A DNA stretch of 64,000 nucleotides, from the NCBI GenBank assembly GCA_049297395.1, contig JBAQUG010000499.1, positions 15,140 through 79,139 on the forward strand, given 5' to 3'. Shown here one piece after another: positions 6,885-28,292 of this stretch. Made by a program: the position numbers and the translations under genes. Under the pieces are notes generated by a model. It had not been told where the DNA came from, ran no database searches, and was given only the letters and a program-made list of their open reading frames with translations. How positions within the stretch are numbered: the first letter of the stretch is position 1; each line of letters begins with the position of its first letter. This DNA comes from Victivallales bacterium (GTDB taxonomy: Bacteria; Verrucomicrobiota; Lentisphaeria; Victivallales; GWF2-50-93).

Positions 6885-6913
6885 TTGACATGTTAATTAT
6901 TTTATTGTAAGAT
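6885..6913 (+). promoter_or_regulatory. Candidate sigma70-type promoter of the GntR/LacI-hybrid regulator gene
   Basis: TTGACA (6885-6890), a 17-nt spacer, then TAAGAT (6908-6913). This sits 36 nt upstream of the ATG at 6949. Confidence 0.4.
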
Positions 6914-6948
6914 AATGACCGACAACACAACAATAATGGAACGATTTT

Positions 6949-9270: not shown

Positions 9271-9356
9271 TATAGGTGAAATATTCATAAGCGAAGCTTC
9301 AGCTGTCTTAAATAACGGGACAGCAAAACTCGGGAAACGATAATTTGGGAGTAAAA

Positions 9357-12300: not shown

Positions 12301-13331
12301 TCAGGGATATTTCCTTTTCCGGACACGCGGTCAGGGCATTCGCCGTAAAGCGTGCGGGATTTGCCGGCGCTCTTTCCGTCTGGTGGGGTGAGAAACTGAA
12401 ATACTGGAAGAAGAATAAGATTAATGAGGTTGATCTTGACGCCATCGGCTTCCCGAAGAATAATCCCGACGCGGTTGCGTTCGAGAAGTGGTCGTTCATC
12501 ACCGATCCCGACGGGAAGATGACCACGTCCGGCCAATGGATGACGCCCGGATTCGACGATTCGGCGTGGACGAAACTGCCAGCAGGCCCGTGGAACCTGA
12601 TAGACGAAAAGTTGAAGGACTACAGGGACGTAGGGTTGTATCGGGCTAAGTTTATAGTGCCTCGAGAATGGAAAGGGCGCAGGATAATTCTGAATCTCTA
12701 CGGTTTCAACAACCCCATCGTCCAGGACGAGGGCGAATTCTTTGTCAACGGGAAATCCATTACCACCTACAAGGCGCATGGCTGGAATCAAACATACAAC
12801 TATGATGCCACGGAAATGATCGTTGACGGCGACAACGCACTGACGGTGAAGGTGAAAGGCGGAAAAGAGCTCTCCGGAATATGCGGCACGGTGTGGTTTT
12901 CCGCTGAGCGCAAGCTTGAGCCGCTGATCGACCTTGCTGGCTCATGGCGCGCGGTAAAGGCGGATTTCGTCACCACCGAGACGGCGAGTATTCCGGGCAA
13001 GTTCACGGGAAGCCATCTGCGGCGGATTATTGACATTCCGGCGGAATGGAACGGGAAGAGCGTCTTCCTGCATTTCGAGTCGCCCTCCCAATGGGTGGGA
13101 AGTGTGGTCGTCAACGGCCATCCTGTCAACTACAACAGCTACCTGCATCCATTTGGATTGAGAACCGAGGTCAATATCACGCAGTTCATGAAATACGGAA
13201 CCTCAAATCTCATCGAGTTGTGGCCGTACCAGACGATCTCCTCGACCGGCGGCACAGGCGGTGGCGGCGGAGAGAAGGAGCGGACAGAGGCGATCTCAGC
13301 TATTGGAGTGGGTTGTGAAAGACAAAAGTAA
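9357..13331 (+). CDS. Large secreted multidomain glycoside-hydrolase-like protein (GH42-like clan-GH-A core, GATase1-like domain, several galactose-binding-like domains)
   Basis: The track ORF starts at TTG 9345. ATG 9357 follows GGGAG and gives the signal peptide MKANLIQVFLMASTIVSLAYA. LGAWQPYTGEPGGEYGL...CWDYSPRGQECMRQWLKDVKGLSLMKLGERWHGDPGFYKSWREV resembles the GH42 NE-block region with its ...C.C..C...F..WL...Y.....LN..W block. The three segments SAWTKLPAGPWNL..., LYRAKFIVPREWKGRRIILNLYGFN and IPAEWNGKSVFLHFES are GH2-N/galactose-binding-like. Family not verified. Confidence 0.6.
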   Translation: MKANLIQVFLMASTIVSLAYARAESSSITAPNKTVTLRGYGEVSAVFSDGRADFFCEDGTKADMVLGKLLADLFWDAGESHVEKKIKIGGAEIILHQWQPYGVMVAAVVDRRVVFIGAETEESLLRLVEKEPLILKNEARFHPLKPYPLYLDFFDLRAFKAYTHAMSSPRGDGLASHWKFIRKFGMGGIAFQNPCLWMNSPAPGVVEWAPVDYEMNEARRQGGLIVCCPYIGGEVPLWMYNQAPSDMTAASPTSLIGAWGCAGCAGAHYESWGMPFEKRQSTSLAFLRQIMDRYKDNPSLGAWQPYTGEPGGEYGLHDRTSECWDYSPRGQECMRQWLKDVKGLSLMKLGERWHGDPGFYKSWREVCVPDVHSFFGDLDKRCLRLSDGWRWRKAADDLTPPSASAPGWVPVEMPPSQQQDFLPWGAAFYRISFDGGEWTRANAGKEWYLVCAADIRSPKGTSVWLNGKYFGEHNCKAGDGALGPFGLKVTSLIKETGNELVLLVPSGNSPNSEGKLYGPVFLSTSEPKFYPYLGIHQNARYVDLKEWQVFGISRLHRQMLETVRAIDPERPLILSPGSCVEIMDQAADMAVTFGAGMQMTGREAWYHPWWTGLGHVAGFYGTSEPGDTARGKSLSRLLGWIMMDADSNHDLFWTLEDYIKEEKDNGWFSKNQAVFRLFGKYLRADPKIVILRSVVSMRLNSQAPWVWDVGRGELQGLHFDNVYTTERELLKGLVDPYPALIDSGTEFMDVDTVAALRSYVEKGGTFVALHNTGRHSTLEPDTWPVSQLTGFKVVAQGKRGKITFRSTSEPLFKEWAGKEFEGEGMAMDYMGADSAKGAGIGLEANASGATVLATWDDGTVAVGCRKLGKGRVIVLGSTFWRNGKDVSGAWKSQGAVEAAFFERLLADIGVARDADAGSSSVWARKYVSKNGLQDWLIAYNSADAALKTDLFLKTAQPPSEVFDLVERKSVPFEISPDGLIKLRDISFSGHAVRAFAVKRAGFAGALSVWWGEKLKYWKKNKINEVDLDAIGFPKNNPDAVAFEKWSFITDPDGKMTTSGQWMTPGFDDSAWTKLPAGPWNLIDEKLKDYRDVGLYRAKFIVPREWKGRRIILNLYGFNNPIVQDEGEFFVNGKSITTYKAHGWNQTYNYDATEMIVDGDNALTVKVKGGKELSGICGTVWFSAERKLEPLIDLAGSWRAVKADFVTTETASIPGKFTGSHLRRIIDIPAEWNGKSVFLHFESPSQWVGSVVVNGHPVNYNSYLHPFGLRTEVNITQFMKYGTSNLIELWPYQTISSTGGTGGGGGEKERTEAISAIGVGCERQK

Positions 13332-14107
13332 TGAGCAGGGGGAATCAAGTGAATATTCCAATCAAATTGGTGCTGATGACAGTGGGAATCCTTTTTATGA
13401 CGGATCTCATTCTTCTTGACAATTGCGCTTGCAAGGTGTGTGCGGAAGAAGTCAGGGGACCGGCTCCTAAAGAACCTGTTCCTGAAAGTCCTGTGAAAAA
13501 CAATGGTCCGGTAAACCTTTTGAAAAATGCGGGTTTCGAGGAATGGGGCAAAGGGAAAAATAGTCCATACGGCAAGGTTCCTCCACCTAAAATAAGTTCC
13601 GACGGTGTGCCGGACGCGTGGGAGTCATATCAGGCTCCTTACGAGTCGCCGGAGAAGCAGGAATTCAAGGCGGGTGGAAGCCTGGGCAAGGACACCGTGG
13701 TCAAACACGATGGCGGTGCTTCACTCCTGATGGAAAATAAATTTACAACCGACACCATCTGCATTCAGCAGGACATGGAAGTGGAGCCAGACACCAGTTA
13801 TATGCTCAAGTGTTTATTTAAAGGTGACAGTATTGAACTGAACAGCGGCGATGGTTGTGGTGCGATTGTCTGGGTGATTCCTGCATCTAAGAAGGATCTC
13901 TGGTCGCAGCAGGAATCCATGGCGAGAAATCCGCAGCCGAACAAGGGGAGTTTCGACTGGAGCACCTTCTCCTTTCGTATTGACACGGGTTCTGAGACGA
14001 ATTGGATGAAGATCGACTTTCAATTGCGCCGCGCATCAGGCAGATTATGGATGGATGACGTCCAGCTGATCAAGCTGGAAAAGATAAAAAGGGTGGAAAC
14101 TTACTAA
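13331..14107 (+). CDS. Secreted/anchored protein with CBM4/9-like carbohydrate-binding domain
   Basis: 258 aa with an N-terminal hydrophobic segment. NLLKNAGFEEWGKG ... GGASLLMEN ... GRLWMDDVQL is the usual CBM_4_9-type jelly-roll pattern. The start overlaps the upstream stop by 1 nt. Confidence 0.6.
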   Translation: MSRGNQVNIPIKLVLMTVGILFMTDLILLDNCACKVCAEEVRGPAPKEPVPESPVKNNGPVNLLKNAGFEEWGKGKNSPYGKVPPPKISSDGVPDAWESYQAPYESPEKQEFKAGGSLGKDTVVKHDGGASLLMENKFTTDTICIQQDMEVEPDTSYMLKCLFKGDSIELNSGDGCGAIVWVIPASKKDLWSQQESMARNPQPNKGSFDWSTFSFRIDTGSETNWMKIDFQLRRASGRLWMDDVQLIKLEKIKRVETY

Positions 14108-14153: not shown

Positions 14154-15221
14154 TTGCCAGATCAGTTGCGACTGGCAGGGAAATTTATTTCTCTCTCCGG
14201 AGAAACTGCAATTCCGGATTTTGCTGTCAAGGATAATTTGCCTACTGAGGGCGGGCTGCTTACTCTCCCGTGGGATCGCCATTGGCCATCGGTCGCTGGA
14301 AACGCCGGGCTCCTGGAAAAATTCGCGGCTTTCACGGAAAGGAAGGTCAGCGGTTATTCGGAAATGGCCGTATGGCACAGCTGGCAGTCGCCGGCATACC
14401 TTGAAACATCCTATTACACTTACATCCGCCTGTGGATGACATGCAATTACAATCTCTCCCAGTCGGCATACGACGAAAGCCGTTTCTTCGATTATGCCAG
14501 TACATCCTCTCTCGAAAATGCGAAAGTCGCAGACGGAAAGATCCATCTTCCAGGCGGGACATACAGGCGTCTCACACTTCCTTTCGCAATTATACTGACT
14601 GAGAAACTCTGGAAGAAAATCAAGGAATGCGTGAAGGCTGGAGTCGAACTGGTCTTCATAGGACCGCCACCTCACAGACTTCTGGAAAGCGGCAGGGAAA
14701 TATCCGAGGAATTCTGTAGTTTGTGCGGAATTGAACATGTCGATTTCAAACGCTACCATTCCTGGCTCTCATCGCACAAGCCACTGCCGAAATTCGATGA
14801 CTGGGAACCTCAGATGATTGATTTTGCGTTCCCGGTGACCCCTCTGAAGGGTACCGATACATTGAAGGACAGCGACGGGGAGATTATAGGCGTGCGAAAT
14901 CCGCAGAAAGGTGTCACATGGCTGACCACTCCGGATCCGCGCGGGCTTTTCCACAGGAACATTCCCGCGATTCAGCCTTCTGGAATTGAGATAGAACATT
15001 TTGGACGATCGAACTACAGAATTCTCCAGGATCCAAAGAGACCTTCGGAATTCATACTTGTCTGCGCATCGCGCATGGATGAAGAGCTGCATGATGTTTT
15101 CAGCGTTGGCGGAAAGAAGATTGCATTGAAAGGCGGCTGCTGGGCCGCTTTGAGGTTCTCCAAAGGCCGCATCGTCGACAAGATGCTGGACAAGGATGTT
15201 AAATTCAATCAAGACCGCTGA
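14154..15221 (+). CDS. Hypothetical protein, probably frameshifted near its 5' end (see finding at 14138-14233)
   Basis: 355-codon open frame whose track start is a TTG with no Shine-Dalgarno. A strong AAGGAG followed by ATG at 14138 opens a different frame that closes after 32 codons. A (TC)4 tract at 14190-14197 lies in the overlap. Confidence 0.6.
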   Translation: MPDQLRLAGKFISLSGETAIPDFAVKDNLPTEGGLLTLPWDRHWPSVAGNAGLLEKFAAFTERKVSGYSEMAVWHSWQSPAYLETSYYTYIRLWMTCNYNLSQSAYDESRFFDYASTSSLENAKVADGKIHLPGGTYRRLTLPFAIILTEKLWKKIKECVKAGVELVFIGPPPHRLLESGREISEEFCSLCGIEHVDFKRYHSWLSSHKPLPKFDDWEPQMIDFAFPVTPLKGTDTLKDSDGEIIGVRNPQKGVTWLTTPDPRGLFHRNIPAIQPSGIEIEHFGRSNYRILQDPKRPSEFILVCASRMDEELHDVFSVGGKKIALKGGCWAALRFSKGRIVDKMLDKDVKFNQDR

Positions 15222-15346: not shown

Positions 15347-16222
15347 TTATCCAACCTTGGTGTCTTTCTTCTTGCCCTTGCTCTGACCTTGCAGAAAGCT
15401 GTTCCTGTAGAGTCCGGGGCTCGTCCCCGTATTTTTCCTGAATATCCTGCTGAAATAGGCCTGGTCCGGGAACCCCGAGTTGATTGCGACTTTCGCAATC
15501 GGAACGTCGGTGTGCTGAAGCCAGTTCATCGCCTGTTTCATGCGGACGGATGTCAGATAGTCCACAGGGGAGAACCCGACCCGTTTCTTGAAGAGCCGGT
15601 AGAAATGGCCTTCGCTGTAGTCAAATTTAAAAGCCAAGTCCGAGATCGAGAAACTTTCCGAAAAATGATCGTTTATGTATTTCACCGAAGCCTCTATCTT
15701 GTCGTCGGTAGGACTTGCTCCGTCCTGCAGGGTTTTAAGGAAAAGGACAAAAACATCCAGGATCCTGGCGTCGAAGACCGGACCTGCAAGACGCGGCTTC
15801 CTCTGGGTGATGAACCAGAATTTTTCCACCAGGGCAGACAGCTCCTCCGAATTTGCGGATACGGGCTTTGCGATATTGCAGTTCTCCACGGCCTGTCCAT
15901 TGAACCCTATCCATACCGTATCCATCGTGGACTCCGAATCCTCGCAATGCGAGATGCCCGGAGGGACAAGGACGATATCGAAGGGATGAATCGATCTGTT
16001 TTCTTCACAGAGAAGATGTCCGTCTCCCCTGAATATGCAGATGAACTCCCAGAAACCGTGGGCCGTGGGGGTTTTTGATTTTCTTGGGCCTGCAAAGCGC
16101 TCCACGTACAGCGGGGTAAGCCATGAGGAGCGGCCGGGACTGCTATCTCCTTCCCATAAACTGCTGCTGAAATGGGAGGGACCCTTGTAAATGTTATGAT
16201 TGATCATGTCATAATTGTCCAA
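15347..16222 (-). CDS. AraC-family transcriptional regulator (cupin sensor + HTH_18)
   Basis: 291 aa. C-terminal SISDLAFKFDYSEGHFYRLFKKRVGFSPVDYLTSVRMKQAMNWLQHTDVPIAKVAINSGFPDQAYFSRIFRKNTGTSPGLYR. Start uncertain: TTG at 16222 or ATG at 16207. Confidence 0.85.
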   Translation of the reverse strand: MDNYDMINHNIYKGPSHFSSSLWEGDSSPGRSSWLTPLYVERFAGPRKSKTPTAHGFWEFICIFRGDGHLLCEENRSIHPFDIVLVPPGISHCEDSESTMDTVWIGFNGQAVENCNIAKPVSANSEELSALVEKFWFITQRKPRLAGPVFDARILDVFVLFLKTLQDGASPTDDKIEASVKYINDHFSESFSISDLAFKFDYSEGHFYRLFKKRVGFSPVDYLTSVRMKQAMNWLQHTDVPIAKVAINSGFPDQAYFSRIFRKNTGTSPGLYRNSFLQGQSKGKKKDTKVG

Positions 16223-16329
16223 ATATAATAATTGATTTATCCATAGAATAATACATCCTGATTCTGTATAATAAAGTCATAATATTAAAAAACATTCACG
16301 GGAAAATAAATATCAACCTGGAGGTTTCA

Positions 16330-17325
16330 ATGAAGGCTGCATTCAGGAAAAAAGGGAAATATTATATCAAGGATCTGGAGAGGCGCAAACTTGGCCTCGG
16401 ACAGATCAGGGTTGCGGTTGATGCGTGTGGAATATGCGGGACAGACATCCATTCCGATTCAGAGCAGGAGGAGATGTTCGGGCATGAGATCGCCGGAAGA
16501 ATCATTGAGACTGGAGAAGGTGTCAACTGGCTTAAAGCGGGGCAGAAAATAGTTCTGGACTCCGCGACGCCATGCGGCAAGTGCGACAACTGCAAGAATA
16601 CGAAGCAGGAGCTGTGTACCGACATCCAGAGCATCTGGTTTGTCCCGAGTTTCGGCTTTGCCGAGGAGATTATAGCTCCCGCTGTTTGCGCAATATCCTG
16701 TGAAGACATTGAACCCGCTGTCGCAAGTCTCCAGGAGCCTCTCGGAGTGGCGATTGATCTGGTGAGGCTTGCCGACATCCGACCTGAATCCAACGTTCTC
16801 GTCATGGGGCCCGGCCCCATCGGACTCATGGCTCTGGCGCTAGTAAAAAGAATGGGGGCGCGCAGGGTTTTCATGTCGGCATTCAAAAAAGAGAAGATCC
16901 GCTGTGAAATGGCGAAAAAACTCGGTGCCGATGAAGTGATTGATCCATCGGAATGCGAACTCACTGACAAATCGTTCGGATGCCAGATTGACAGGATTCT
17001 TGTGACAACGCCTCCGCCTACATTGAATGATGCATTCAAGGTTGCGGCAAAGGGAGGCATTGTCTCATTCATAGGGATCGGGCACGGGGAGAGGGCTTTC
17101 TGCAAGTTTGATGCAAACGCATTTCATTTCAAGAAACTCCAGCTGAGGGCGTCATTCGCTTCTCCGGCATTATACGGGCCTCTGGCACTCCAGTATCTCA
17201 GAGAGGGAGTTATTGACGGGAAGTCCCTTGTTTCACACCGGTTCCCCCTGGAGAAGATCGAGGAGGCGATGAAAGTCGCGTCGGATCCGGCCATTTCCCT
17301 GAAAGTGGTGGTCACTTCAAAATAA
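16330..17325 (+). CDS. Zinc-dependent medium-chain alcohol/polyol dehydrogenase
   Basis: 331 aa. CGICGTDIH and GHEIAGRIIETGEGV (catalytic Zn), CGKCDNCKNTKQELC (structural Zn), VLVMGPGPIGL (Rossmann). GGAGG lies upstream of the ATG. Confidence 0.85.
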   Translation: MKAAFRKKGKYYIKDLERRKLGLGQIRVAVDACGICGTDIHSDSEQEEMFGHEIAGRIIETGEGVNWLKAGQKIVLDSATPCGKCDNCKNTKQELCTDIQSIWFVPSFGFAEEIIAPAVCAISCEDIEPAVASLQEPLGVAIDLVRLADIRPESNVLVMGPGPIGLMALALVKRMGARRVFMSAFKKEKIRCEMAKKLGADEVIDPSECELTDKSFGCQIDRILVTTPPPTLNDAFKVAAKGGIVSFIGIGHGERAFCKFDANAFHFKKLQLRASFASPALYGPLALQYLREGVIDGKSLVSHRFPLEKIEEAMKVASDPAISLKVVVTSK

Positions 17326-17355
17326 AAGGGCAAACAGGTTTGGAAAGGGTTGGGG

Positions 17356-17403
17356 TGCGGGGAAGGGAAGAACCTTTCCTTAAAAGGTTTTTCATTCCCC
17401 GCA
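17356..17403 (+). terminator. Candidate stem-loop after the dehydrogenase gene
   Basis: TGCGGGGAA (17356-17364) pairs with TTCCCCGCA (17395-17403), with an inner pair AACCTTT/AAAGGTT, followed by TTCAAGTTCTTTC. Its right half belongs to a 42-nt motif repeated at 56761-56802. Confidence 0.4.
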
Positions 17404-17434
17404 TTCAAGTTCTTTCAAAAATGAGGTTGTTCCA

Positions 17435-18583
17435 ATGTCCATGAAAATTACAGGAAAACAGAGAATGTTGAATGCCTATCGGGGGAAATTCTCCGACAGG
17501 GTCGCCATCGCCCCTGAATTCTGGTATTATTATCCGGCGAAGCTCCTGGGCGTGGATATGATTGAATTCGAACGGAAAGTCCCCTTCCACCAGGCTCTCA
17601 AGAAAACTTTCGAAACCTATGGATGTGAAGGCTGGGGTGCGGCATTCCCGTCAATTCCAAACGACAAGGTAAAAACAGAGACCAAGGAAAAGTGGACTGA
17701 TAAAGATACGCTTGAGGTCAGACATGTCACCAGCACATCCGCAGGCAGGCTTGAATCAGCTTCAGTGTTCAGCAGGGAAGAACCGAGCTGGGCCGTCGAA
17801 CGTCCTGTGAAAAATATTGAGCATGATCTTGCGGCATGGGAAATCTGCGCCTTTGGCGGAAATCCTGAGGACATGGACGTTTCAGGAATGGTAAAGGCAT
17901 GGAATGAAGTCGGCGAAACCTATCTTCTTGAAGCATGGCTTGGCGCGCCGTTCTTTGATTTTTTCGCCGGATCCCGTGATGGCGGCTTCGAGACCGCCAT
18001 TTTTGATTTCATGGATCCTGATTTCGAGCCCAAGCTGCATGAACTTCAGCAGCGGCATATTGAAAGGATGGTTTTGGTCGCAAGAACAATCTGCGAGAAA
18101 ACTCCGTTTGAAAGTCTGGCCATCGGATGTTCCTGGAGCTGCAATTCGCTGATCGGCCCCGATCTCTGGAGAAAATGGGACAAGCCGGTCATAAAGGCTG
18201 TCGCAGACGAGATTCACCGGCATGACAAGCTTCTCCACATCCATTTCCACGGAAAATGCATGGAGACGGTTGCGGATTTCGCAGAAATTGGCATAGATTG
18301 CGTATGTCCGTTTGAAAGACCGCCGGGCGGAGATGTGAAGAATGCAGAAGATTTGAGGAAGGTTGCTGCGCTACTGAACGGAAAAACGACCATGAACGGG
18401 AACGTCCACACCGTCGAGACGCTTATCAAGGGTACTCCGGAGAAAGTGCGCTGCGAAGTTCGCGAAATCATGAAGGCATTCAAGGGGAATCCGCGTCTGA
18501 TTCTCGGCACAGGCGACCAGGTCGGACGCGAAACCCCTGAAGAGAACATAATTGCAATGATTGATGAAGGGAAGAGGACATGA
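17435..18583 (+). CDS. Uroporphyrinogen decarboxylase (URO-D/MtaA) family protein, paralogue 1
   Basis: 382 aa. N-terminus KITGKQRMLNAYRGKFSDRVAIAPEFW and C-terminus ILGTGDQVGRETPEENIIAM are typical of the family. No signal peptide. Confidence 0.75.
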   Translation: MSMKITGKQRMLNAYRGKFSDRVAIAPEFWYYYPAKLLGVDMIEFERKVPFHQALKKTFETYGCEGWGAAFPSIPNDKVKTETKEKWTDKDTLEVRHVTSTSAGRLESASVFSREEPSWAVERPVKNIEHDLAAWEICAFGGNPEDMDVSGMVKAWNEVGETYLLEAWLGAPFFDFFAGSRDGGFETAIFDFMDPDFEPKLHELQQRHIERMVLVARTICEKTPFESLAIGCSWSCNSLIGPDLWRKWDKPVIKAVADEIHRHDKLLHIHFHGKCMETVADFAEIGIDCVCPFERPPGGDVKNAEDLRKVAALLNGKTTMNGNVHTVETLIKGTPEKVRCEVREIMKAFKGNPRLILGTGDQVGRETPEENIIAMIDEGKRT

Positions 18584-19839
18584 AATGCGGTGGAATGATG
18601 GCAATAGGAATTGTCTTAGGACTGCAAACCTCGATGGCAGGGGGAAACATGGGTAATTTACATTTTCTAGATAGGTTTGACAATAGGCTGGCCGGATGGA
18701 CGCTTAACCAAGCAGGCGGAACGGTCAAAATTGCAGATGTCTCTGCTTCAGATAAATTGGAATTAGACGACAGATCGGAAACAAAGAGCGTGTCGGCAAA
18801 GACTCCATTTGCAGCCCCTTCAGCTAAATATATAGTGGAATACGATATGTGTTTTGCTGCCAATAATGCCGGGATATTCGAGCTGTTGGATGCTTCAAAT
18901 AATCCGATTGTCAATGTAAGCGGCGGAATGAAAAATAATACGTTGTCGTTCTCTACGGATACAGAGCCTGCCACAACTGTAACCTGGACAGACGCTACGT
19001 ATAATCAAGTGACCCTTGCCATAGATCCGGCAGCGAAAACTGTCAGATGCTACTGGATTGACAAATCATACTCCGCCAGCGCCTATAACCCTAAGAAGCA
19101 GGTGGCGGTCAAAAACTATTCAGGCGCAGCGGCTGCACAGTTATCTTTTAGGACAGATAGCACTAAAACAGGAAAGACATATATCGATGAAGTCAAGGTC
19201 TACGCTCCGGATTTTGCCATTGTAGGAGATTCCGCCTCTGACGGCAAGCCCAGATGGAGCAACGACCCCAGCACGGTGTATAGGCTGGGAGCTGCTGGTA
19301 AGCCGGATCAGACATCACCTCCACATTATCAATTAGGCCTTCTTTTAGGGAAAAAAAACTGGGTGGCAAATCTTGGTTTTGGAGGATCTCAATCATCGGA
19401 GATAGCATCCTTGGCTCAAACCCTGTTGTTGGACCAGGGTTTCCGAAGAATATGGATCAAGATAGGATTGAATGATTTCAACCGTGGTCTGTCAGCTGCG
19501 ACGGTAGAAAAAAATATTCAATCGGCAGTAAAGACCCTTATTGCAGGCGGTATAACTCCGAGTAATATATTCTTATGTAATTGTTATGGAGCATCTATGT
19601 TGACAGCGGCAAAGGACAATGAAAGGAAGGCATACAATACCTGGCTTGCCGCATATTGCCCCAGTGTTGGAATCAACCTGGTTGACAATGATGGAACAAT
19701 CACTGATTATACGGTTTCCCCGGTTAAACCTAAGCCGGCGTATGACATCGGAGATGGAGTGCATCTTACGAAAGCAGGTTCAGGACAGATGGCGCAGAAT
19801 GTCTACAAGCTCCTGAAAACCGCACGCCAAGACAAATGA
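18580..19839 (+). CDS. Secreted SGNH/GDSL hydrolase with N-terminal lectin/LamG-like domain
   Basis: 419 aa. ATGA overlap with the upstream gene, and a short signal peptide. FAIVGDSASDG (block I), LGFGGSQSSE (block II), DGVHLTKAG (block V). Confidence 0.75.
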   Translation: MKCGGMMAIGIVLGLQTSMAGGNMGNLHFLDRFDNRLAGWTLNQAGGTVKIADVSASDKLELDDRSETKSVSAKTPFAAPSAKYIVEYDMCFAANNAGIFELLDASNNPIVNVSGGMKNNTLSFSTDTEPATTVTWTDATYNQVTLAIDPAAKTVRCYWIDKSYSASAYNPKKQVAVKNYSGAAAAQLSFRTDSTKTGKTYIDEVKVYAPDFAIVGDSASDGKPRWSNDPSTVYRLGAAGKPDQTSPPHYQLGLLLGKKNWVANLGFGGSQSSEIASLAQTLLLDQGFRRIWIKIGLNDFNRGLSAATVEKNIQSAVKTLIAGGITPSNIFLCNCYGASMLTAAKDNERKAYNTWLAAYCPSVGINLVDNDGTITDYTVSPVKPKPAYDIGDGVHLTKAGSGQMAQNVYKLLKTARQDK

Positions 19840-19897
19840 AACAACTGTTAATGAGCAATCAGTTGCGGAGAATTAATATTAAAACGGAGGGCAAGAT

Positions 19898-20824
19898 ATG
19901 ACAGGCAAGGAAAGGATGTTGAAGACATTGCGGTTTGAAGAGCCTGACCGGCCTCCTCATTTTGAGGTGATGTTCGAGCTTGAAAAGGAGGCATTCGGCC
20001 TGGAGTTTCCAAATCGCACCCTGTGGGGGAAATGCTCCCCCGGCGAAAAAACAAAAATGATTTTGCAGTGCATGAAGATATATGAGAAGATCGTCGGGCG
20101 CTACTCCTGGGATGCGCTCGCAGTGTTCTGGCCCTGGAGCGATCCCGATGGCGTCATCGCCGCAAAAAAGACTTTCGGCAACGACATCCTGATCGGCAGC
20201 ATTGTCGGCAACACCATCTGGGCCATTGACAATATCAGCGACTGGACCGAGTTTGCTGTGACGCTGATGGAACAGCCCCAGGAAATACACCGGGTGGCGG
20301 CGGAGAAAAACGCGGCGGCGCTGGAGAAATATGCCAGCCTGATTGATGCCGGAGCCGATTTCATCCATATTGTCAACGATGTGGCGTTCAATGCAGGCCC
20401 GTTCATCTCCCCGGCGCAGTTTTCGGAGTTTGTGACGCCTTATTTGAAACAGCAGGTCCAGTACATCAGGGCCCAGGGAGTAATACCGTTCGTGCACACG
20501 GACGGCAACATAGACTCGATTTTGGATGACTACCTGTCTCTCGGCGCGGCATGTTTCCAGTCGGTGGATCCGATGGCGGGCATGGACATTGCGAAAACCA
20601 AGCAGCGCTGTCATGGGAAAATGGCATTGATGGGCAACGTACAGTGCAACCTCCTGCAGGACGGACCGGACGAGGCGATCAGGAAATCCGCGCTGTACTG
20701 TCTTGAAAATGCGTCGCCGGGAGGAGGCTACATTTTCGGGACTTCAAATACGATATTCCCTGGAATGCCTCTTGGAAATTATGAATACATGCTGGATATT
20801 TACAGGAATTTCTATAATAAATAA
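19898..20824 (+). CDS. URO-D/MtaA family protein, paralogue 2
   Basis: 308 aa. MTGKERMLKTLRFEEPDRPPHFEV..., ...GGGYIFGTSNTIFPGMPLGNYEYM. GGAGGG lies upstream of the ATG. Confidence 0.8.
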   Translation: MTGKERMLKTLRFEEPDRPPHFEVMFELEKEAFGLEFPNRTLWGKCSPGEKTKMILQCMKIYEKIVGRYSWDALAVFWPWSDPDGVIAAKKTFGNDILIGSIVGNTIWAIDNISDWTEFAVTLMEQPQEIHRVAAEKNAAALEKYASLIDAGADFIHIVNDVAFNAGPFISPAQFSEFVTPYLKQQVQYIRAQGVIPFVHTDGNIDSILDDYLSLGAACFQSVDPMAGMDIAKTKQRCHGKMALMGNVQCNLLQDGPDEAIRKSALYCLENASPGGGYIFGTSNTIFPGMPLGNYEYMLDIYRNFYNK

Positions 20825-20835
20825 AGGAGTTCCTG

Positions 20836-23319
20836 ATGAACAAGATCCACCTTATATGTAATGCGCACCTCGATCCCGTATGGCTGTGGGAGTGGGAGGA
20901 GGGCGCCGCCGAAGCGGTTTCAACTTTCAGGACCGCCGCCGAGCTGTGCTCCGAATCCGACAATTTCATTTTCAACCACAACGAGGCAATACTTTATAAA
21001 TGGGTGGAAGAATATGAGCCTTCTCTTTTCGCGAAAATCCAGAAACTTGTCAAACAGGGGAAGTGGCATATTGCCGGGGGCTGGTATCTCCAGCCTGACT
21101 GCAACATGCCTTCCGGAGAAACATTTGTCAGGCATATAGCCGCCGGAAGGAATTATTTCCGGGAGAAATTCGGAGTAGAAGTGAAGACCGCGATTAATTT
21201 CGATTCTTTCGGGCACAGCCGCGGCATTGTCCAAATCATGGCGCAGTGCGGATATGATTCGTATCTTTTCTGCAGGCCGTCGCAGAACGACTGCCAGCTG
21301 CCTGCCGATGTCTTTGTCTGGAAGGGTTTCAATAATTCATCCTTGCTGTGCAGGCGGATTTCAGGCGGATATAACTCCCATCTGGGGAAGGCCGTGGAGA
21401 AGATCAGAGGCGTTGTCGAGAAAGAGTCCGATAAAAAGATAAACATGATATTGTGGGGAGTCGGCAATCACGGGGGCGGCCCTTCTAGAAAAGATATTTC
21501 AGGCATTGAAACGTTTATCCAGGAGAAGTCGGATGAAATTGAAATCCTGCATTCGACCCCTGAAAATTATTTTTCCGGCTTGAAAAAACAAGGGGTGAAA
21601 AAAATCCCATCCTTCAGCAAGGATTTAAATTCATGGGCGGTGGGATGCTATACCTCCATGATCCGCATAAAGCAGAAGTTCCGCCTTCTTGAGAATGAAC
21701 TGTACATGACCGAGAAAATGGCTTCGTCCGCATATTTCCAGAAGCTTCTTGACTATCCGGCGGCGGAGCTTTCCGAAGCCCGGAACGATCTTCTTGCCGC
21801 AAGCTTCCATGATATTCTGCCGGGGTCTTCGATCCAGCCTGTGGAGGAAATGGCCATACGTCTTATGGATCATGCCCTTGAGAACATTTCACGGGTGAAG
21901 ACGAGGGCTTTCTTCGCCCTCGCATCCGGACAGGAGAAAACTCCGCAGGATGAAATTCCAGTGCTCGTCTACAATCCGCATCCGTTCAAGACCGACGCGG
22001 TAATAGACTGTGAGTTCATGCTTCCGGACCAGAACTGGAGCAATGAGGATAAATTCACCGATGTGGAAGTCTATTCGGACGGCGTGAAAATTCCGGCGCA
22101 GGTTGAAAAGGAAGCATCGAATCTCAATCTTGACTGGCGCAAGAAGATAGTCTTCCGCGCCGAGCTGAAAGCGTCCGGCATGAACAGGTTCAACTGCAGG
22201 CTGACCTTGAAGAAGGATCGTCCTGCCGCCAGCGTCAAGGACGTGGATGGAATTTTCAAGTTCGACAACGGCGCGATGGAATTAGGGATAAGCAAGAAGA
22301 CCGGACTGGTTGAATATTACTCGGTCGACGGCGTGAGATATGTCGGCGCCAGAGCTTTTGAACCGACTGTCCTTGTCGACAATGAAGATCCATGGGGGAT
22401 GCAGGTAAAGCGGTTTGACCGGATGGACGGCGTTTTCAAGCTGAGCAGTCCCTCTGAATGCGCCAGGTTCTGTGGAATTCAAAAGAAAACTCTTGCGCCG
22501 GTGCGGGTGATTGAAGACGGTGAAGTCAGGACTGTCATTGAAGCAGTTTTTTCGTTCGGCACATCTAGGATCTGCCAGCAGTACATAATACCGAAGAAGG
22601 GGAGCGGGTTTGAAGTGATGACCCGCGTGTTCTGGAATGAAAAGAACCGTTTCCTGAAACTGAACATTCCCGTCCTTATAAATTGCGCCGAGTTCCTAGG
22701 GCAGACAGCTTTCGGATACCACGGTCTTCCGGTGAACGGGGATGAGGCGGTTTCCCAGAAGTGGGTCGCCGTCAATTCCGACAGGCATTCCTTCTCCTGC
22801 ATAAACAACGGGACATACGGATCGAGTTTTGAAAAGGGGAACATGAGGCTGTCCCTGTTGAGGTCTCCTGCATATGCAGGCCATCCTATCTGCGACAGGC
22901 CGATAGTTCCGCAGGATCGGTTCACTCCGAGGATAGAGCAGGGAGAAAGGCTGTTCCACTTCTGGTTCAACGCCGGAACATTGGGGAAAAGGATGGAGTC
23001 CCTGGACAGGGAGGCGCTTGTGCAGAACGAGAAGCCGCCGGCGCTGTCCTTCTTTCCGCCGGGATCCGGAGCAAGGCCTTCCGAATTATGCAGGATAAGC
23101 GGCGGCAGCATCCAGCTTGTCAGCGCGAAAAAAGCTGAGAATGGCGGAGCTCTCGTTGTCAGGCTTTTTGAGCCTGCCGGGATAAGAACAGAGACTGTGC
23201 TGGAGTTCCCGTTTGCAGGGTTCAGGAAGAAACTCAAATTCAATCCTCTGGAGTTCAGGACATTCAGTTTTGATCCAAGGAAAAAGGAACTGCGGGATGT
23301 CAATGCGGCAGATGAATAA
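20836..23319 (+). CDS. Glycoside hydrolase family 38 alpha-mannosidase (cytoplasmic)
   Basis: 827 aa. N-terminal IHLICNAHLDPVWLWEWEEG and WGVGNHGGGPS are GH38 N-domain hallmarks. AAGGAG lies upstream of the ATG. No signal peptide. Confidence 0.75.
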   Translation: MNKIHLICNAHLDPVWLWEWEEGAAEAVSTFRTAAELCSESDNFIFNHNEAILYKWVEEYEPSLFAKIQKLVKQGKWHIAGGWYLQPDCNMPSGETFVRHIAAGRNYFREKFGVEVKTAINFDSFGHSRGIVQIMAQCGYDSYLFCRPSQNDCQLPADVFVWKGFNNSSLLCRRISGGYNSHLGKAVEKIRGVVEKESDKKINMILWGVGNHGGGPSRKDISGIETFIQEKSDEIEILHSTPENYFSGLKKQGVKKIPSFSKDLNSWAVGCYTSMIRIKQKFRLLENELYMTEKMASSAYFQKLLDYPAAELSEARNDLLAASFHDILPGSSIQPVEEMAIRLMDHALENISRVKTRAFFALASGQEKTPQDEIPVLVYNPHPFKTDAVIDCEFMLPDQNWSNEDKFTDVEVYSDGVKIPAQVEKEASNLNLDWRKKIVFRAELKASGMNRFNCRLTLKKDRPAASVKDVDGIFKFDNGAMELGISKKTGLVEYYSVDGVRYVGARAFEPTVLVDNEDPWGMQVKRFDRMDGVFKLSSPSECARFCGIQKKTLAPVRVIEDGEVRTVIEAVFSFGTSRICQQYIIPKKGSGFEVMTRVFWNEKNRFLKLNIPVLINCAEFLGQTAFGYHGLPVNGDEAVSQKWVAVNSDRHSFSCINNGTYGSSFEKGNMRLSLLRSPAYAGHPICDRPIVPQDRFTPRIEQGERLFHFWFNAGTLGKRMESLDREALVQNEKPPALSFFPPGSGARPSELCRISGGSIQLVSAKKAENGGALVVRLFEPAGIRTETVLEFPFAGFRKKLKFNPLEFRTFSFDPRKKELRDVNAADE

Positions 23320-24373
23320 ACCAGGGACAGTGCAAATGGCCGGGAACAGGCTCCAGATCAGCCTGAACCTCATGCCTGCATTCTTTTCCAAGCACATAGG
23401 GACGTCCTATGGCGACAGATATTATTTTGATCCCGCCTACAGGGCGGAGGTGGAGCGGGCGGAAGGAAGATACCTTTTTGAAATCCTCGGCCAGTTCGGG
23501 GTGGGGGACAAGGAGCCCAGGCCATCCTCGAATCTCTTTATCCAGCCGATAGATCTGGTAAAGGCGACGCAGGGCGCCGAGATCTACTGCCCCCCCGACG
23601 CCACCCTCGAAACACATGGGCATCCGTGGGCGGCCAAATCTCCCGATGAAATCAGACGTATTCCGGCGGCGGACGCGGCACGGCATCCTGTTGTGGACAC
23701 GGTTTTGAAGCAGTATGCCGAGCTCTCACTCCTCTACGGGGAAGATGCCGATATATTCGGAATAAAATCAGGGCGGATGGGGATACACGCCCCTTTCACA
23801 ACTGCGCATCAGCTTATGGGAGAGGAACTGTTTTTCCTGATGGTCGACAACCCGGAGGCGGCAGGAGCTGTTTTCCTGAAGATCTGGGAAATATACCGGG
23901 CCGTCTATTCAAGGCTGGCGTCCGAACTGAGGGTTCCGTCCCCCGTGCGCATCCACATGGGGGACTGTTCGGCATGCATGTTGTCGGAAGAACTTTACAG
24001 GAGCAGCGTGCTTCCTGTAAACCGGAAAATAGCGGGTGATTTTCAGACAGCCTCCTATCATTCATGCGGAGGCTCGACCCATCTGATTTCCGCTTTTTCA
24101 GAACTTCCGCCTCTGACTCATATAGAACTTGGTCCGGGGACTGATCTTGCACGGGCGGTCCAGCTGATGCCGAAAACTGCCATGAGTCCACTGGTGGATC
24201 CGGTCATAATCCGCAACGGCAAGCCGAAAGAAGTGGAATCATTAGTTGAATCGCTCACGTCTGAAACGTCGAACGCTCCGGCGGTGACATTGTGCGCATG
24301 GTCGCTCGACATGGAAACTCCGGTGGAAAACCTTCAGGCGCTTTATGGGACTCTTGAGGAAGGCATTACTTGA
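23297..24373 (+). CDS. Divergent URO-D-like protein, paralogue 3
   Basis: The track start at 23213 would overlap GH38 by 107 nt. ATG 23297 follows AAGGA with 8-nt spacing. The family call rests on overall length, IHMGDCSACMLSEE, and SYHSCGGSTH in the position of the H-x-C-G motif. This is the weakest of the six assignments. Confidence 0.55.
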   Translation: MSMRQMNKPGTVQMAGNRLQISLNLMPAFFSKHIGTSYGDRYYFDPAYRAEVERAEGRYLFEILGQFGVGDKEPRPSSNLFIQPIDLVKATQGAEIYCPPDATLETHGHPWAAKSPDEIRRIPAADAARHPVVDTVLKQYAELSLLYGEDADIFGIKSGRMGIHAPFTTAHQLMGEELFFLMVDNPEAAGAVFLKIWEIYRAVYSRLASELRVPSPVRIHMGDCSACMLSEELYRSSVLPVNRKIAGDFQTASYHSCGGSTHLISAFSELPPLTHIELGPGTDLARAVQLMPKTAMSPLVDPVIIRNGKPKEVESLVESLTSETSNAPAVTLCAWSLDMETPVENLQALYGTLEEGIT

Positions 24374-24374
24374 T

Positions 24375-24615
24375 CGTATAGGAAATTGTATTTTAGACAG
24401 GATAACAGGATAAACGGGATTTTAAAATGGATTTAAATATTGAGTTGCAATCAAAGAGCACGTCAGCAGAGTGACGTGGCTACAACAAATCCAGGCTGTA
24501 GCCGCGTCACTCTGCTGACGCGTTCCTTTCCCGATGAATGCAACTTGCTATAAATATCCTTGGAATCCTGTAAATCCTGTCCGAAAAGTTATTAAGCCCC
24601 GGCGAAGCCGGTTAA
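24375..24615 (+). repeat. 241-bp palindromic intergenic element, copy A (MITE/ERIC-like); core 64-nt hairpin at 24460-24523
   Basis: Near-identical to 36534-36781, differing by a few substitutions and an 8-nt indel. Core: ACGTCAGCAGAGTGACGTGGCTACA / ACAAATCCAGGC / TGTAGCCGCGTCACTCTGCTGACGCGT. The outer arms GACAGGATAACAGGATAAACGGGAT and ATCCTTGGAATCCTGTAAATCCTGTC are inverted copies of each other. Confidence 0.85.
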
Positions 24616-24721
24616 GTCCAGTAAGACTGGCCGTTCCAGCCTGCTTGTTGATGCAATCAGATGGAATCGGAAACAAGTTATTCAGAGTTTGCAATTAGCT
24701 TAACCAAAAAAAGGAGAGCAT

Positions 24722-25444
24722 ATGAAAACGAAACAGACAATAGTGGTGGCGGGAATCCTGGCAGCTGGATTTCTGGTGGAGTCGCTTGTGGCCGGAGAGA
24801 TCAACGTGAAGAAAGCGGACGGAAAGACTGTTGTGCAGGTTGTCGCAGGTTCACCTGAAGCTCCTGCCGTGCAGGCTGCAAATCCGAACATCCAGGTGGA
24901 ATGCCTGAAATCAAAAGACAGCCAGACCCCTTATCCGGTGCTGAAGGATGATCTTGTAAATGCAGGATCTCCGTCCCTGGCTAAAGTATTGTTCGATGAC
25001 TTTGCCCCGCATCAGGCGTGTAATGCCGCGGCATTGAATGACGGAAACACAGGAAATCCTTCGGATCAGAACGGTGTCACGTTCGATCTGGATGGCACAT
25101 GGACCACCACGTTCGTGCTGGACGCTTCCAAGGCGTCCAAGGGCTATGATATCAGCGAGATAAGAACCGTTGCAGGCTGGCCGCCGAGCCGCGCATACCA
25201 GAAATACGAGCTGTTGGTTTCCAAGGTTTCCGCGCCTGATAAATTCATCTCCATGGGGACGTTCAATGTGGATGCGGAAGGAGGAGCCTTGGCAAGTCAG
25301 ATTAAATTAACAGGAAAAGAGAGCCTGATCGAGACCAATGTGTCTTCAATAAAATTCAAGTTCATGGTTCCCAATCCAGCCGTTCCAGCAACCGAGACGG
25401 CCTACCGTGAAATTGATGTCGTTGGCAAGGCAAGCGAAAAATGA
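24722..25444 (+). CDS. Secreted hypothetical protein (possible discoidin/galactose-binding-like fold)
   Basis: 240 aa. AGGAG lies upstream of the ATG. Signal peptide MKTKQTIVVAGILAAGFLVESLVAGE. The function call is weak. Confidence 0.6.
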   Translation: MKTKQTIVVAGILAAGFLVESLVAGEINVKKADGKTVVQVVAGSPEAPAVQAANPNIQVECLKSKDSQTPYPVLKDDLVNAGSPSLAKVLFDDFAPHQACNAAALNDGNTGNPSDQNGVTFDLDGTWTTTFVLDASKASKGYDISEIRTVAGWPPSRAYQKYELLVSKVSAPDKFISMGTFNVDAEGGALASQIKLTGKESLIETNVSSIKFKFMVPNPAVPATETAYREIDVVGKASEK

Positions 25445-27177
25445 GAAGGAAGGAATTACCTACGATGAGACATGTAAATGCCGGGACACCCCGGATTGTT
25501 TCAGCAATTATGACCGTAACGACAATCCTGATCAACATGCCAACGGGGGTGGCGGCCCCGGCAGAAGTCACAGCCATGATTTCAGTCAGGGATATCAAGG
25601 GATCCTACACTATTCCATATATCCAGTCCGACCGGGATCTCAGGGTGAATGTTGATTTTTCGGATCCGGATGCGGCTTCAGCCGACCTGGTGCTCGAAGG
25701 GAAGGATTTCCGGGCGGACAGGAAGGCGGAAAAGGCATCGCCCTCCGCTTTTTTCACAGGACTGCCTTCAGGCGAATTCACGCTTAAAGTCGAATGGCTG
25801 AAATCCGACGGATCAAAACTGTCGGATACGGTTTACCGGAGAATCGGCGTCGGAGCCGTGCTTGCCGCAATCGGGGACAGCCTCACCGAAGGCTATCATG
25901 GACAGGGATTCCTGAAGGACAGCCTTGACCTGAAAGCATCGGATTTCCCTGCAGAGGCGGTGTCAAAGGACGGGCGTAATTTCCCGCAGTTTTCCCCGAC
26001 GACTTTTCATCATAAGCCTACGGTCAACTGTTTCCAGAGCTGGATGACGGGGTTGAACGACAGTTTGTCGGAAAAGTGGAAAATGCCGGTATTCATCGCC
26101 AATGAGGGGTGGGGAGGATACACGGCCGCAAATTACCTGTCGATGATGCGCGGGAATTCCGGCGGATGGGCTGATCGCATGCGTCTCCTGCGTCCTGATG
26201 CATGGCTGATCCATCTTGGAGTGAATGACGAGCGCGCCAAGGTTCCGCCTGCGGAATTCGCAAAAAACATGAAGGCGATCGTCGGAATACTCCTTGATGA
26301 ATACAATGCTGATCCTTCCCAGATATATCTGGCATATCCGAGCTATGATTACGCCGCAGGGGCGGAATCCATACTTCGCTCATACATCGTTGAAATCGAC
26401 AAGATAGTTTCAGACATGAATCTGCGCACAGGGCCGGATTATTTTGGAACTTTTTCAAAGGACAAGGCGAAATGGTATGGCGGCGATCCCGTGCATCCGG
26501 GCGTGGAAGGAATGGATCTGATGGCGGAATTATGGGCCTCCAAGCTTTCTCCAAATGTCCCAGCCCCTAAAAAGTCATGCCATTTCATGCAGAATCTGAA
26601 GAACGGGAAAAAACAGACCATAGTCACATACGGTACAAGCCTGACCGCAGGCGGAGCCTGGGTAGGAGCACTTCAGAACGCCCTTGACGCAAGGTATCGG
26701 GGACTTGCCACGGTGATCAACAGCGGAAAAGGAGCGATGTGTTCAATATGGGGGATTGAGAACCTACAGGAGCGCGTGCTTTCAAAGAAACCGGATGCCG
26801 TATTCATCGAGTTCTCCGTGAACGACGCCTATCTTCCATACAAGATGACTTTGGCCGGCTGCAAAAAGAACATCGACGCCATGGTCGAACGAATTCTCAA
26901 TGAAAATCCCGACTGCGAAATCATCCTGATGGTGATGAACCCCATGGTTGACGTACATTCGGAACGGAGGCCCGAGCTGGAGAAATTCAACGACATCTAC
27001 AGGGAAACGGCAAAGGATAAAGGTTTTCTCCTTGTTGATCACTATCCGGCATGGCTCAAGATCCTTAATGCGGACAGGAAGGAGTTTGACGGTCTTGTTC
27101 CGGATGGCGCACATCCGAGCCCTGAAGGATGCCGCAGGATTGTGAATCCTAATATTTTGAAGGCGATTGGAATGTAG
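25441..27177 (+). CDS. Tandem double SGNH/GDSL hydrolase (two esterase domains)
   Basis: 578 aa. Domain 1: AAIGDSLTEGYHG, EGWGGYTA, GGDPVHPGVEG. Domain 2: IVTYGTSLTAGG, FSVNDAY, PDGAHPSPEG. Start is either the ATGA overlap at 25441 or ATG 25465. Confidence 0.8.
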   Translation: MRRKELPTMRHVNAGTPRIVSAIMTVTTILINMPTGVAAPAEVTAMISVRDIKGSYTIPYIQSDRDLRVNVDFSDPDAASADLVLEGKDFRADRKAEKASPSAFFTGLPSGEFTLKVEWLKSDGSKLSDTVYRRIGVGAVLAAIGDSLTEGYHGQGFLKDSLDLKASDFPAEAVSKDGRNFPQFSPTTFHHKPTVNCFQSWMTGLNDSLSEKWKMPVFIANEGWGGYTAANYLSMMRGNSGGWADRMRLLRPDAWLIHLGVNDERAKVPPAEFAKNMKAIVGILLDEYNADPSQIYLAYPSYDYAAGAESILRSYIVEIDKIVSDMNLRTGPDYFGTFSKDKAKWYGGDPVHPGVEGMDLMAELWASKLSPNVPAPKKSCHFMQNLKNGKKQTIVTYGTSLTAGGAWVGALQNALDARYRGLATVINSGKGAMCSIWGIENLQERVLSKKPDAVFIEFSVNDAYLPYKMTLAGCKKNIDAMVERILNENPDCEIILMVMNPMVDVHSERRPELEKFNDIYRETAKDKGFLLVDHYPAWLKILNADRKEFDGLVPDGAHPSPEGCRRIVNPNILKAIGM

Positions 27178-27198
27178 CATAACAAAAGAGGTATATCC

Positions 27199-28257: not shown

Positions 28258-28292
28258 AGTTTTCATGTCCCACATAGTATGAGGTGGACTTA

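Follow-up and report, generated by a model that had tools for sequence, protein, structure and literature searches.

What do three genes annotated as uroporphyrinogen decarboxylase (URO-D) do among genes of sugar metabolism? The question is raised by a 64-kb stretch of a metagenome-assembled genome (MAG) of Victivallales (Lentisphaerota), here called the window, whose positions are used throughout. At 15347-24373, a gene of an AraC-type regulator is divergent from a plus-strand series encoding a Zn-dependent dehydrogenase (Zn-ADH), the first URO-D paralogue (U1), an SGNH esterase, the second paralogue (U2), an alpha-mannosidase of glycoside hydrolase family 38 (GH38) and the third paralogue (U3). 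Open reading frame (ORF) listings and Pfam scans confirmed all seven genes, with the order and families given in the initial annotation. An oxidoreductase gene of the Gfo/Idh/MocA family (Gfo) lies further downstream. We found that U1, U2 and U3 belong to a gene module conserved across phyla, and we suggest that its enzymes process a modified carbohydrate derived from mannosides, by a redox pathway that is cytoplasmic and metal-dependent. This reading is given a probability of about 0.5; the substrate, the metal, the sequence of steps and the reaction types of U1, U2 and U3 are inferred.

Conservation of the gene module

A scan with the U3 alignment, using one genome per species, returned 42 loci (designated by L numbers), all from MAGs. 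The counts given here refer to the 39 loci with a full-length U3; for module members they are lower bounds, as many contigs are short. The loci belong to Victivallales, other Lentisphaerota, Kiritimatiellae/Pontiellaceae, Verrucomicrobiota, Armatimonadota, Spirochaetales and Planctomycetia, about six phyla. Mapping of the window proteins on these loci produced a recurrent layout, in which a divergent AraC gene is followed by Zn-ADH - U2 - U3 - (SGNH) - Gfo - U1, with intergenic spacers often below 40 nt. U3 is accompanied by U2 in 24 of the 39 loci (at most 600 bp upstream in 16), by U1 in 22, by Gfo in 16, by the Zn-ADH in 13 and by AraC in 11. The Gfo orthologues are full length, have 57-73% identity and often directly precede U1. 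All three URO-D orthologues lie together in 19 of the 39 loci, from several phyla, and thus their clustering exceeds chance.

The Gfo-U1 and ADH-Gfo-U1 adjacencies reappeared when an independent set of metagenomes was scanned with the U1 alignment. In the same scan, U1 can stand alone. Three loci contain U1 orthologues without U2 or U3 and with a DUF3604 protein directly after them (11167-12711 in L006 and L007, 9128-10699 in L050); in L006 and L007 these solitary genes sit amid GH123 and GH20 genes. Since U1 occurs without U2 and U3, it would have a role outside the three-paralogue module. In a closer relative of the window (L001, U1 88% identical) the order is AraC, then U1 - unknown - U2 - U3 - SGNH, without the Zn-ADH and GH38.

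Judged from gene content, the conserved core consists of five enzymes predicted to be cytoplasmic, namely Zn-ADH, Gfo, U1, U2 and U3. A full-text literature search found no paper connecting URO-D-family genes with glycan loci, only analogies. The module is widely conserved, has not been described previously in the literature searched, and is built of divergent members of a known superfamily. Its structure is solidly established; its function is inferential.

Fold and putative metal site of the URO-D proteins

All three paralogues score above the gathering threshold of the URO-D family PF01208 (23.9 bits). AlphaFold2 models made from the family alignments reached pLDDT of 95.4 for U1 and 95.7 for U3. 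In Foldseek searches the top match of the U1 model was the methyltransferase MtaA (4ay8, 6.6e-13), followed by UROD, and the U3 model matched MtaA (7e-13), then UROD and also MetE. E-values of both models against 4ay7/4ay8 and UROD were about 1e-12 to 1e-13, at TM-scores of 0.63-0.71, and their identity to MtaA in the structural alignments was 14-16%. No other proteins than MtaA, UROD and MetE, and no carbohydrate enzyme of the URO-D fold, were found for the two models in the Protein Data Bank (PDB). Direct comparison of the U3 and U1 alignments by hhalign gave a probability of 95%. The U1 model has an extra beta-sheet insertion at approximately residues 80-122. U1 and U3, as modelled, and U2, as judged from its sequence, have the URO-D fold. 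The matches of U3 remove the doubt raised in the initial annotation as to whether the third paralogue belongs to this fold.

A second URO-D cluster is situated at 42532-48168, where a GH2 gene is followed by three further paralogues, U4, U5 and U6. Orthologues of U6 and U4 pair up in the metagenome loci L104, L112, L116 and L126, and the paralogue nearest to U1 within the window is U6 (25% identity). It had been asked whether the six paralogues are ancient subfamilies or recent duplicates. They are ancient: pairwise identity among the six is 20-26%, and U1, U2 and U3 each form an orthologous family across phyla with invariant residues of its own. Recent duplication is ruled out by the same identities and the separate families. 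U1 has 909 homologues, with 63-89% identity among the 120 matches listed; those named belong to Lentisphaerae, Planctomycetota, Sumerlaeota, Verrucomicrobiota and Kiritimatiellae. For U3 there are 168 homologues, and for U2, at E<=1e-10, 1519 representatives.

NCBI and JGI annotate the U genes as 'uroporphyrinogen decarboxylase (family protein)', which would fit ordinary copies of hemE for heme biosynthesis or a coincidental adjacency of URO-D and carbohydrate enzyme genes. This explanation is effectively excluded. The cut-off of the HemE model TIGR01464 is 303 bits; U1 scores 23.6 bits, U2 scores 40 bits and U3 has no match. Six paralogues within 64 kb, no other heme genes nearby, and a module syntenic across phyla with dehydrogenases and AraC likewise argue against it. 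HemE/UROD shares PF01208, the fold and the annotation with U1-U3, but not their metal-type site. The models of the MtaA/CmuA type (TIGR01463, PRK06252) have cut-offs of 235-244 bits, and these are not reached either: U1 scores 43 bits, U2 62-65, U3 27.6 and U4-U6 38-66. Overall, the six window paralogues score 28-66 bits against the MtaA-type models and at most 40 bits against HemE. In a sequence search of PDB, U3 had no match, and those of U1 and U2 were marginal; the best matches of U2 are UROD enzymes (2e-5), and it also weakly matches CdmB.

The motifs HFHGKC in U1, HTDGN in U2 and YHSCGG in U3, reported in the initial annotation, are present and share one alignment column. A HMMER alignment of U1 with MtaA and a profile alignment of U3 with U1 place this column at the His-x-Cys zinc-ligand motif of MtaA, and the remaining two MtaA ligand positions (Glu, Cys) align likewise. 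Thus the difference between the paralogues noted at first is real, but it concerns the zinc-ligand position of MtaA/MetE and not the active site of the decarboxylase, as the phrase 'active-site position' had implied. The MtaA-type zinc-site motif His-x-Cys...Glu...Cys is kept by U3 (His242, Cys244, Glu264, Cys320), with the His and both Cys invariant and the Glu present in 33 of 39 sequences and replaced by Gln in 6. The U1 site is His270/His272/Glu294/Asp361, invariant except for one Cys at 272, which comes from the window paralogue U6 included in the alignment. The U2 site, His200/Asp202/Asp224/Asn284, is near-invariant, and the invariant residues of the U2 family are D161, H200, G203, D224, D230 and G246. 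The paralogues of the second cluster have HCCGN, HTCGA and HSCGP in the same column (44909-48168). The claim that the paralogues are not functionally uniform is supported by these family-specific invariant residues at one site. Since each family has its own residues at the four shared metal-ligand positions, the three proteins probably retain one site architecture with three different chemistries.

The residues bear on two further explanations. One is that U1-U3 are true decarboxylases, cofactor-free or metal-assisted, acting on beta-keto sugar acids produced by the dehydrogenases, for instance in conversion of hexuronate or hexonate to pentose. Decarboxylation is the founding activity of the fold, the best PDB matches of U2 are the UROD enzymes mentioned above, and decarboxylases commonly act after a dehydrogenase. 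However, the HemE scores are 24-40 bits against the cut-off of 303, the conserved residues occupy metal positions of MtaA rather than substrate-binding positions of UROD, no uronate-specific enzymes (lyases, uronate isomerase) recur in the neighbour censuses described below, and the GH38 context points to neutral mannose. We consider this explanation improbable.

The other is methyl transfer: anaerobic O-demethylation, or another alkyl or thiol methyl transfer, on methylated sugars such as the O-methyl-mannose of algal or invertebrate N-glycans, with U1-U3 acting as MtaA/MT1-like enzymes. A corrinoid carrier and its activase could be encoded elsewhere, or free cobamide could be used, or the transfer could be directly to a thiol as in MetE; the dehydrogenases would act before or after. 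The strongest argument for it is the set of His/Cys/Glu/Cys ligands of U3, which is of the same kind as the zinc site of MtaA/MetE. The U1 and U3 models also match MtaA best in structure, and MtaA-type models are the best NCBIfam matches of all six paralogues. On the other hand, U1 and U2 lack cysteine ligands, the scores fall short of the MtaA/CmuA cut-offs by a factor of 4-8, and the structural identity to MtaA is as low as given above. On balance we regard methyl transfer, the main rival explanation, as a rather unlikely function of the module, less so than decarboxylation.

Sugar oxidation or methyl transfer

The two core dehydrogenases, NAD(P) enzymes that are strictly associated with the U genes, are the part of the module that methyl transfer leaves without explanation. 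The Zn-ADH contains the zinc motifs C..GHE..E and CxxCxxC(x7)C and GroES-like and Rossmann domains, and thus belongs to the medium-chain dehydrogenases/reductases. Its best NCBIfam matches are Tdh, IolM and idonate-5-dehydrogenase, all far below the cut-off, and its best PDB matches are Tdh, ketose reductase and sorbitol dehydrogenase. Gfo has the GCGNIS and CEKT motifs of the Gfo/Idh/MocA family. Its best NCBIfam match is IolG, below the cut-off; the score is also below the LgdA equivalog cut-off, and its PDB matches include DgpA and 1,5-anhydrofructose reductase. By sequence, both proteins resemble enzymes oxidising ring hydroxyls of sugars or cyclitols (IolM, IolG, DgpA-like). Similar pathways of a Gfo enzyme and TIM barrels are those of levoglucosan (LgdA-C), C-glycosides (DgpA-C) and the Thermotoga genes IolG/IolM/IolN/IolO, the last also with a Zn-ADH.

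The mannoside context is provided first of all by GH38. Its three Pfam domains (N, middle and C) have E-values of 3e-55, 6e-16 and 1e-20, and its PDB matches are alpha-mannosidases of the Ams1 type (7e-49); there is no signal peptide. GH38 of the window type was observed only in L008, L009 and L028, and a second, distant subfamily is represented within the module or immediately next to it in L010, L011, L067, L068 and L078, directly adjoining U1 in the last three. Together with L051, GH38 genes of at least two subfamilies occur in or beside the module in about ten loci, and the co-occurrence is far above expectation for such a rare family. The mannoside-related substrate considered plausible at the outset is therefore supported by a recurrent, not obligate, association in about ten independent loci. 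Both URO-D clusters of the window do accompany predicted cytoplasmic mannosidases, as had been stated: neither GH38 nor the GH2 protein at 42532 has a signal peptide, and the latter is beta-mannosidase-like (7e-164 to PDB 9nfe, 1e-96 to the beta-mannosidase 5n6u).

Pfam censuses of neighbouring genes covered 329 ORFs, 119 and 106 around U3 and 104 around U1. GDSL esterases are the commonest neighbours of U3, together with regulators of LacI/GntR type, sulfatases (3 of 119 ORFs), PfkB kinases and D-lyxose/mannose isomerase. Around U1, ABC permeases (5 of 104 ORFs) are followed by GH38 (4), which is the most frequent enzyme family there. In L004 (11216-13097), downstream of AraC regulators, the first gene of a block is a U1 orthologue with 83% identity, and the block contains D-lyxose/mannose isomerase, class II fructose bisphosphate aldolase and FGGY kinase. 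Genes of Lyx_isomer and PfkB recur beside the module in L009, L010, L011 and L042.

The SGNH gene at 18580 and the GH38 gene, counted in the cluster at first, are indeed there, but they are accessory. For the SGNH gene no tblastn relative at E<=1e-8 was found in any of the related loci fetched, and it is ruled out as a core member; its N-terminal region of about 200 amino acids has no assigned family. GH38, present in a minority of loci, is ruled out as an obligate member.

In the pathway that we propose, exported SGNH esterases would deacetylate a mannose-containing glycan outside the cell. The fragments would be imported, and the cytoplasmic GH38 would free a modified mannose or a mannosyl-aglycone product, which the five core enzymes would turn into an ordinary sugar. 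The two dehydrogenases would install and later remove a keto group, and the URO-D-fold barrels may act on the keto intermediate as metal-dependent catalysts of the lyase, hydratase or isomerase type. There is a precedent for this order of events, in which oxidation by a Gfo enzyme is followed by elimination and hydration by metal-dependent TIM barrels, before a reductase regenerates the sugar (10.1101/2024.03.25.586180). The composition of the module seems to mirror such oxidation-elimination-hydration pathways, in logic only. The AL/BT1-3 clusters of that study (Nasseri et al.) likewise combine a Gfo dehydrogenase with several metal-dependent barrels, and cleave bonds that ordinary glycosidases cannot. 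However, their barrels are xylose-isomerase-like or DUF1080 proteins and not of the URO-D fold. In the module of the window, Pfam scans detected Gfo but neither AP_endonuc_2 nor DUF1080.

Several observations weigh against this pathway. The characterised members of the URO-D fold are all decarboxylases or methyltransferases, and there is no lyase, hydratase or isomerase among them (PMC13222342; PMC10418091). U3 keeps the thiol-activating zinc site of MtaA/MetE, and its sequence thus points toward alkyl transfer over carbonyl chemistry. GH38 is present in a minority of loci only, and U1 is also found alone in unrelated glycan contexts (GH123/GH20, DUF3604).

The remaining points concern a corrinoid partner. 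The characterised non-decarboxylase enzymes of the URO-D fold are methyltransferases that use a corrinoid protein, usually with an activase encoded alongside (PMC13222342; PMC10418091), and in known systems the corrinoid protein is nearly always co-located (PMC10418091). The B12-binding motif DxHxxG..SxL..GG was absent from six-frame translations of 763 kb, comprising the window and the loci, and B12-binding domains were absent from the 25 most frequent families of the 329 neighbour ORFs; a corrinoid protein that is divergent or encoded far away would escape both this motif search and this census, which again counts against the proposed pathway. An Rfam search of the whole window gave no match, hence no cobalamin riboswitch. 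No corrinoid protein was found in the 39 module loci and the window, and the combination of corrinoid protein and activase typical of MtaA/CmuA and of the MT1 O-demethylases is absent from the same set.

One observation in the opposite direction is a full-length corrinoid activase RACo (Fer2, linker, middle and ASKHA domains; 4e-78) in L045 at 348-2591 on the minus strand. It adjoins a GntR regulator gene (2315-3463), which is followed by a variant of the module (3590-11038) that contains an extra SDR and four URO-D-like genes. No other corrinoid-related gene was seen close to any of the modules. The activase gene favours methyl transfer over the redox pathway. However, this is weak evidence, as only 1 of 39 loci has the gene, the sibling locus L038 lacks it, and it lies on the opposite strand beyond a regulator. 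Also consistent with methyl transfer is a fusion protein in a Victivallales MAG (L041, 17855-19480), encoded about 7 kb from the U3 orthologue, in which a canonical URO-D domain of full length (PF01208 1.9e-59) is joined to a thioredoxin-like one.

Among the known methyl-transfer systems, the zinc-dependent methylcobamide:coenzyme M methyltransferases MtaA, MtbA and MtsA (4ay7) have the same TIM-barrel fold as the U proteins, with four aligned ligand positions and, in U3, the same His/Cys/Glu/Cys. However, the genes studied here have no corrinoid protein, activase or coenzyme M context and reside in glycan-degradation loci with two dehydrogenases. The type 1 mlp clusters of Kountz and Balskus (PMC10418091) are the nearest system described and a precedent that speaks for methyl transfer; they too contain several divergent MtaA-like paralogues (Mlp1-3), spread horizontally as a module among non-methanogens, and have an unknown substrate. 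They differ in carrying a corrinoid protein and an activase and no dehydrogenases, and their Mlps are about 30% identical to the MtaA type (PMC10418091). They are found mostly in Firmicutes and are linked with methyl-sulfur or methyl-selenide metabolism, whereas the module has none of this and contains instead the Zn-ADH, Gfo, AraC, esterases and GH38. A type 1 mlp cluster has at least two MtaA-like paralogues of about 30% identity with a corrinoid protein and Ram/RACE; here there are three paralogues, at 14-16%, and no such partners. The corrinoid MT1 enzymes OdmB, VdmB, MtvB, CdmB and CmuA use the URO-D barrel, some with zinc and some without, to cleave methyl groups from oxygen or halogen (PMC13222342). 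They act on aryl methyl ethers or methyl halides, always within systems of MT1, corrinoid protein and MT2, and neither feature was seen here.

A speculative proposal, which we hold to be doubtful, is the following: U1-U3 may form a new, corrinoid-independent branch of the UROD/MtaA family that, together with the two dehydrogenases, carries out oxygen-independent removal of an ether-type modification, especially O-methyl, from mannose or related sugars released by GH38. The removal would proceed by redox-assisted elimination or by direct zinc-mediated alkyl transfer, and would be an anaerobic counterpart of P450 sugar demethylation. The P450-type reaction belongs to aerobes. Many of the host lineages are anaerobic glycan degraders, to which the P450 route is closed, and this also speaks for methyl transfer in general.

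Gene map, putative transcription unit and significance

Features of the region are collected in Table 1.

Table 1. Features of the URO-D locus and its downstream extension, in window coordinates
Feature	Position	Strand	Status	Evidence
AraC/XylS-family regulator	15347-16222	-	divergent from the operon	HTH_18 4e-22 (78.7 bits), HTH_AraC, AraC_binding 1e-4 (22.3 bits, cut-off 21.1)
AT-rich divergent promoter region between AraC and Zn-ADH (predicted)	16223-16329			sequence read
Zn-dependent medium-chain dehydrogenase (Zn-ADH), polyol/threonine dehydrogenase type	16330-17325	+	core	ADH_N, ADH_zinc_N
U1 (URO-D 1)	17435-18583	+	core	PF01208 8.7e-17, 61.6 bits
Exported SGNH/GDSL esterase	18580-19839	+	accessory, lineage-specific	Lipase_GDSL_2 7e-12, residues 216-400; hydrophobic N-terminus
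U2 (URO-D 2), 308 aa	19898-20824	+	core	PF01208 3.7e-29, 102.3 bits
Cytoplasmic GH38 alpha-mannosidase, Ams1/Man2C1 type	20836-23319	+	recurrent accessory	Pfam GH38 N, middle and C domains
U3 (URO-D 3)	23336-24373	+	core	ORF 23213-24373; PF01208 9.4e-10, 38.5 bits; alternative start 23297
REP-like palindrome, 32-nt arms, 3' of the U3 stop	24453-24528			inverted repeat, 88% complementary
Exported protein without Pfam or NCBIfam match	24722-25444	+	accessory	partial homologues beside module genes in L004, L011
Exported two-domain SGNH/GDSL esterase	25441-27177	+	recurrent accessory	Lipase_GDSL_2 3.5e-35, two stretches; homologues in 5/39 module loci
Cytoplasmic Gfo/Idh/MocA NAD(P) oxidoreductase	27199-28257	+	core	Pfam GFO_IDH_MocA; no signal peptide
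Sulfatase	28284-29834	+	possibly last gene of the unit	Pfam Sulfatase 5.5e-51; starts 26 nt after the Gfo gene

The regulator has the C-terminal double helix-turn-helix and the N-terminal cupin-type ligand domain of the AraC family. Its TTG start is less likely and the ATG at 16207 is probably used, since the 291-aa form is absent from the protein collection. The best sigma-70-like match near the divergent region is TTGATC-18-TATAAT at 16200-16229, a consensus match only.

Among the gene junctions described initially, the ATGA overlap between U1 and the SGNH gene is real (18580-18583). The gap before GH38 is 11 nt (20825-20835) rather than 12, and contains the ribosome-binding site AAAGGAG. 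The reported 23-nt overlap of GH38 and U3 depends on the ATG at 23297 and is probably a start-codon artefact. NCBI, JGI and ENA give U3 a start at 23336 and 345 amino acids, and only Logan gives it 358; U3 is 100% identical to NCBI MFZ2657826.1 (345 aa), and the core proteins fall within the accessions MFZ2657821-29. Since the database calls are 345 aa and the orthologues 340-350 aa, 23336 is the most likely start, which leaves a 16-nt gap after GH38 and no overlap.

The description of a tight plus-strand block behind a divergent AraC gene was borne out: gaps inside 16330-24373 range from -4 to +109 nt, the largest being that between the Zn-ADH and U1, and in the 11 related loci mentioned above the AraC homologue (33-38% identity) is likewise divergent and upstream. 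The unit does not end at 24373, as had been assumed, because its conserved partner Gfo lies beyond. After U3 there is a spacer of 348 nt that contains a palindrome with a predicted RNA fold of -62.6 kcal/mol (z = -9.9). Its core CGTCAGCAGAGTGACG, similar to repetitive extragenic palindromic (REP) elements, occurs exactly 5 times at 3 intergenic sites of the window (24453-24528, 36627-36686, 2111-2126), compared to 0.04 expected. Both arms are present at the first two sites, and a single core match at 2111-2126. Since the core recurs at two other intergenic sites, the palindrome is regarded as a dispersed element of REP type, which may act as a terminator of the transcript upstream of it or make that transcript more stable. 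A terminator scan found 15 sites vs 14.8 in shuffled sequences, the level expected by chance, and a promoter scan found 21 vs 11.9, somewhat more; neither scan settles the operon structure. The best explanation of the gene arrangement is a putative AraC-regulated catabolic operon at about 15347-28257, perhaps extending to 29834.

Other genes of the window are of varied nature. Upstream of AraC, a 1328-aa exported protein (9345-13331) has weak matches to GH42, GH2_N and BetaGal_ABD2, and is followed by two exported or unknown proteins without family match (13331-14107 and 14154-15221). An AbiEii-type nucleotidyltransferase toxin of a type IV toxin-antitoxin system (Pfam 6.6e-13) is encoded among carbohydrate genes at 4366-5088 on the minus strand. 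Proteins with a prepilin-type N-terminal methylation motif are found among glycan genes at 8521-9270, 35843-36487 and 41824-42531, and occur beside the module elsewhere too (5 of 119 neighbour ORFs). Glycyl-radical enzymes similar to pyruvate formate lyase (PF02901, PF01228) account for 3 of 119 ORFs flanking the module, in L008-L031, and point to strictly anaerobic hosts.

Glycan-degrading PVC bacteria and Armatimonadota are rich in genes that carry the annotation 'uroporphyrinogen decarboxylase', and there are six such genes in this window alone. Our analysis flags a systematic misannotation of URO-D-family genes. The module is small, comprising five soluble enzymes, and hence is easily tested. 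If it is a real pathway, it would extend, by a new activity, the repertoire of a fold whose known reactions are so far limited to porphyrin decarboxylation and methyl transfer with corrinoids. It may also explain how uncultured anaerobes of lakes, sediments and digesters handle decorated mannose glycans, such as algal and fungal N-glycans and mannans.

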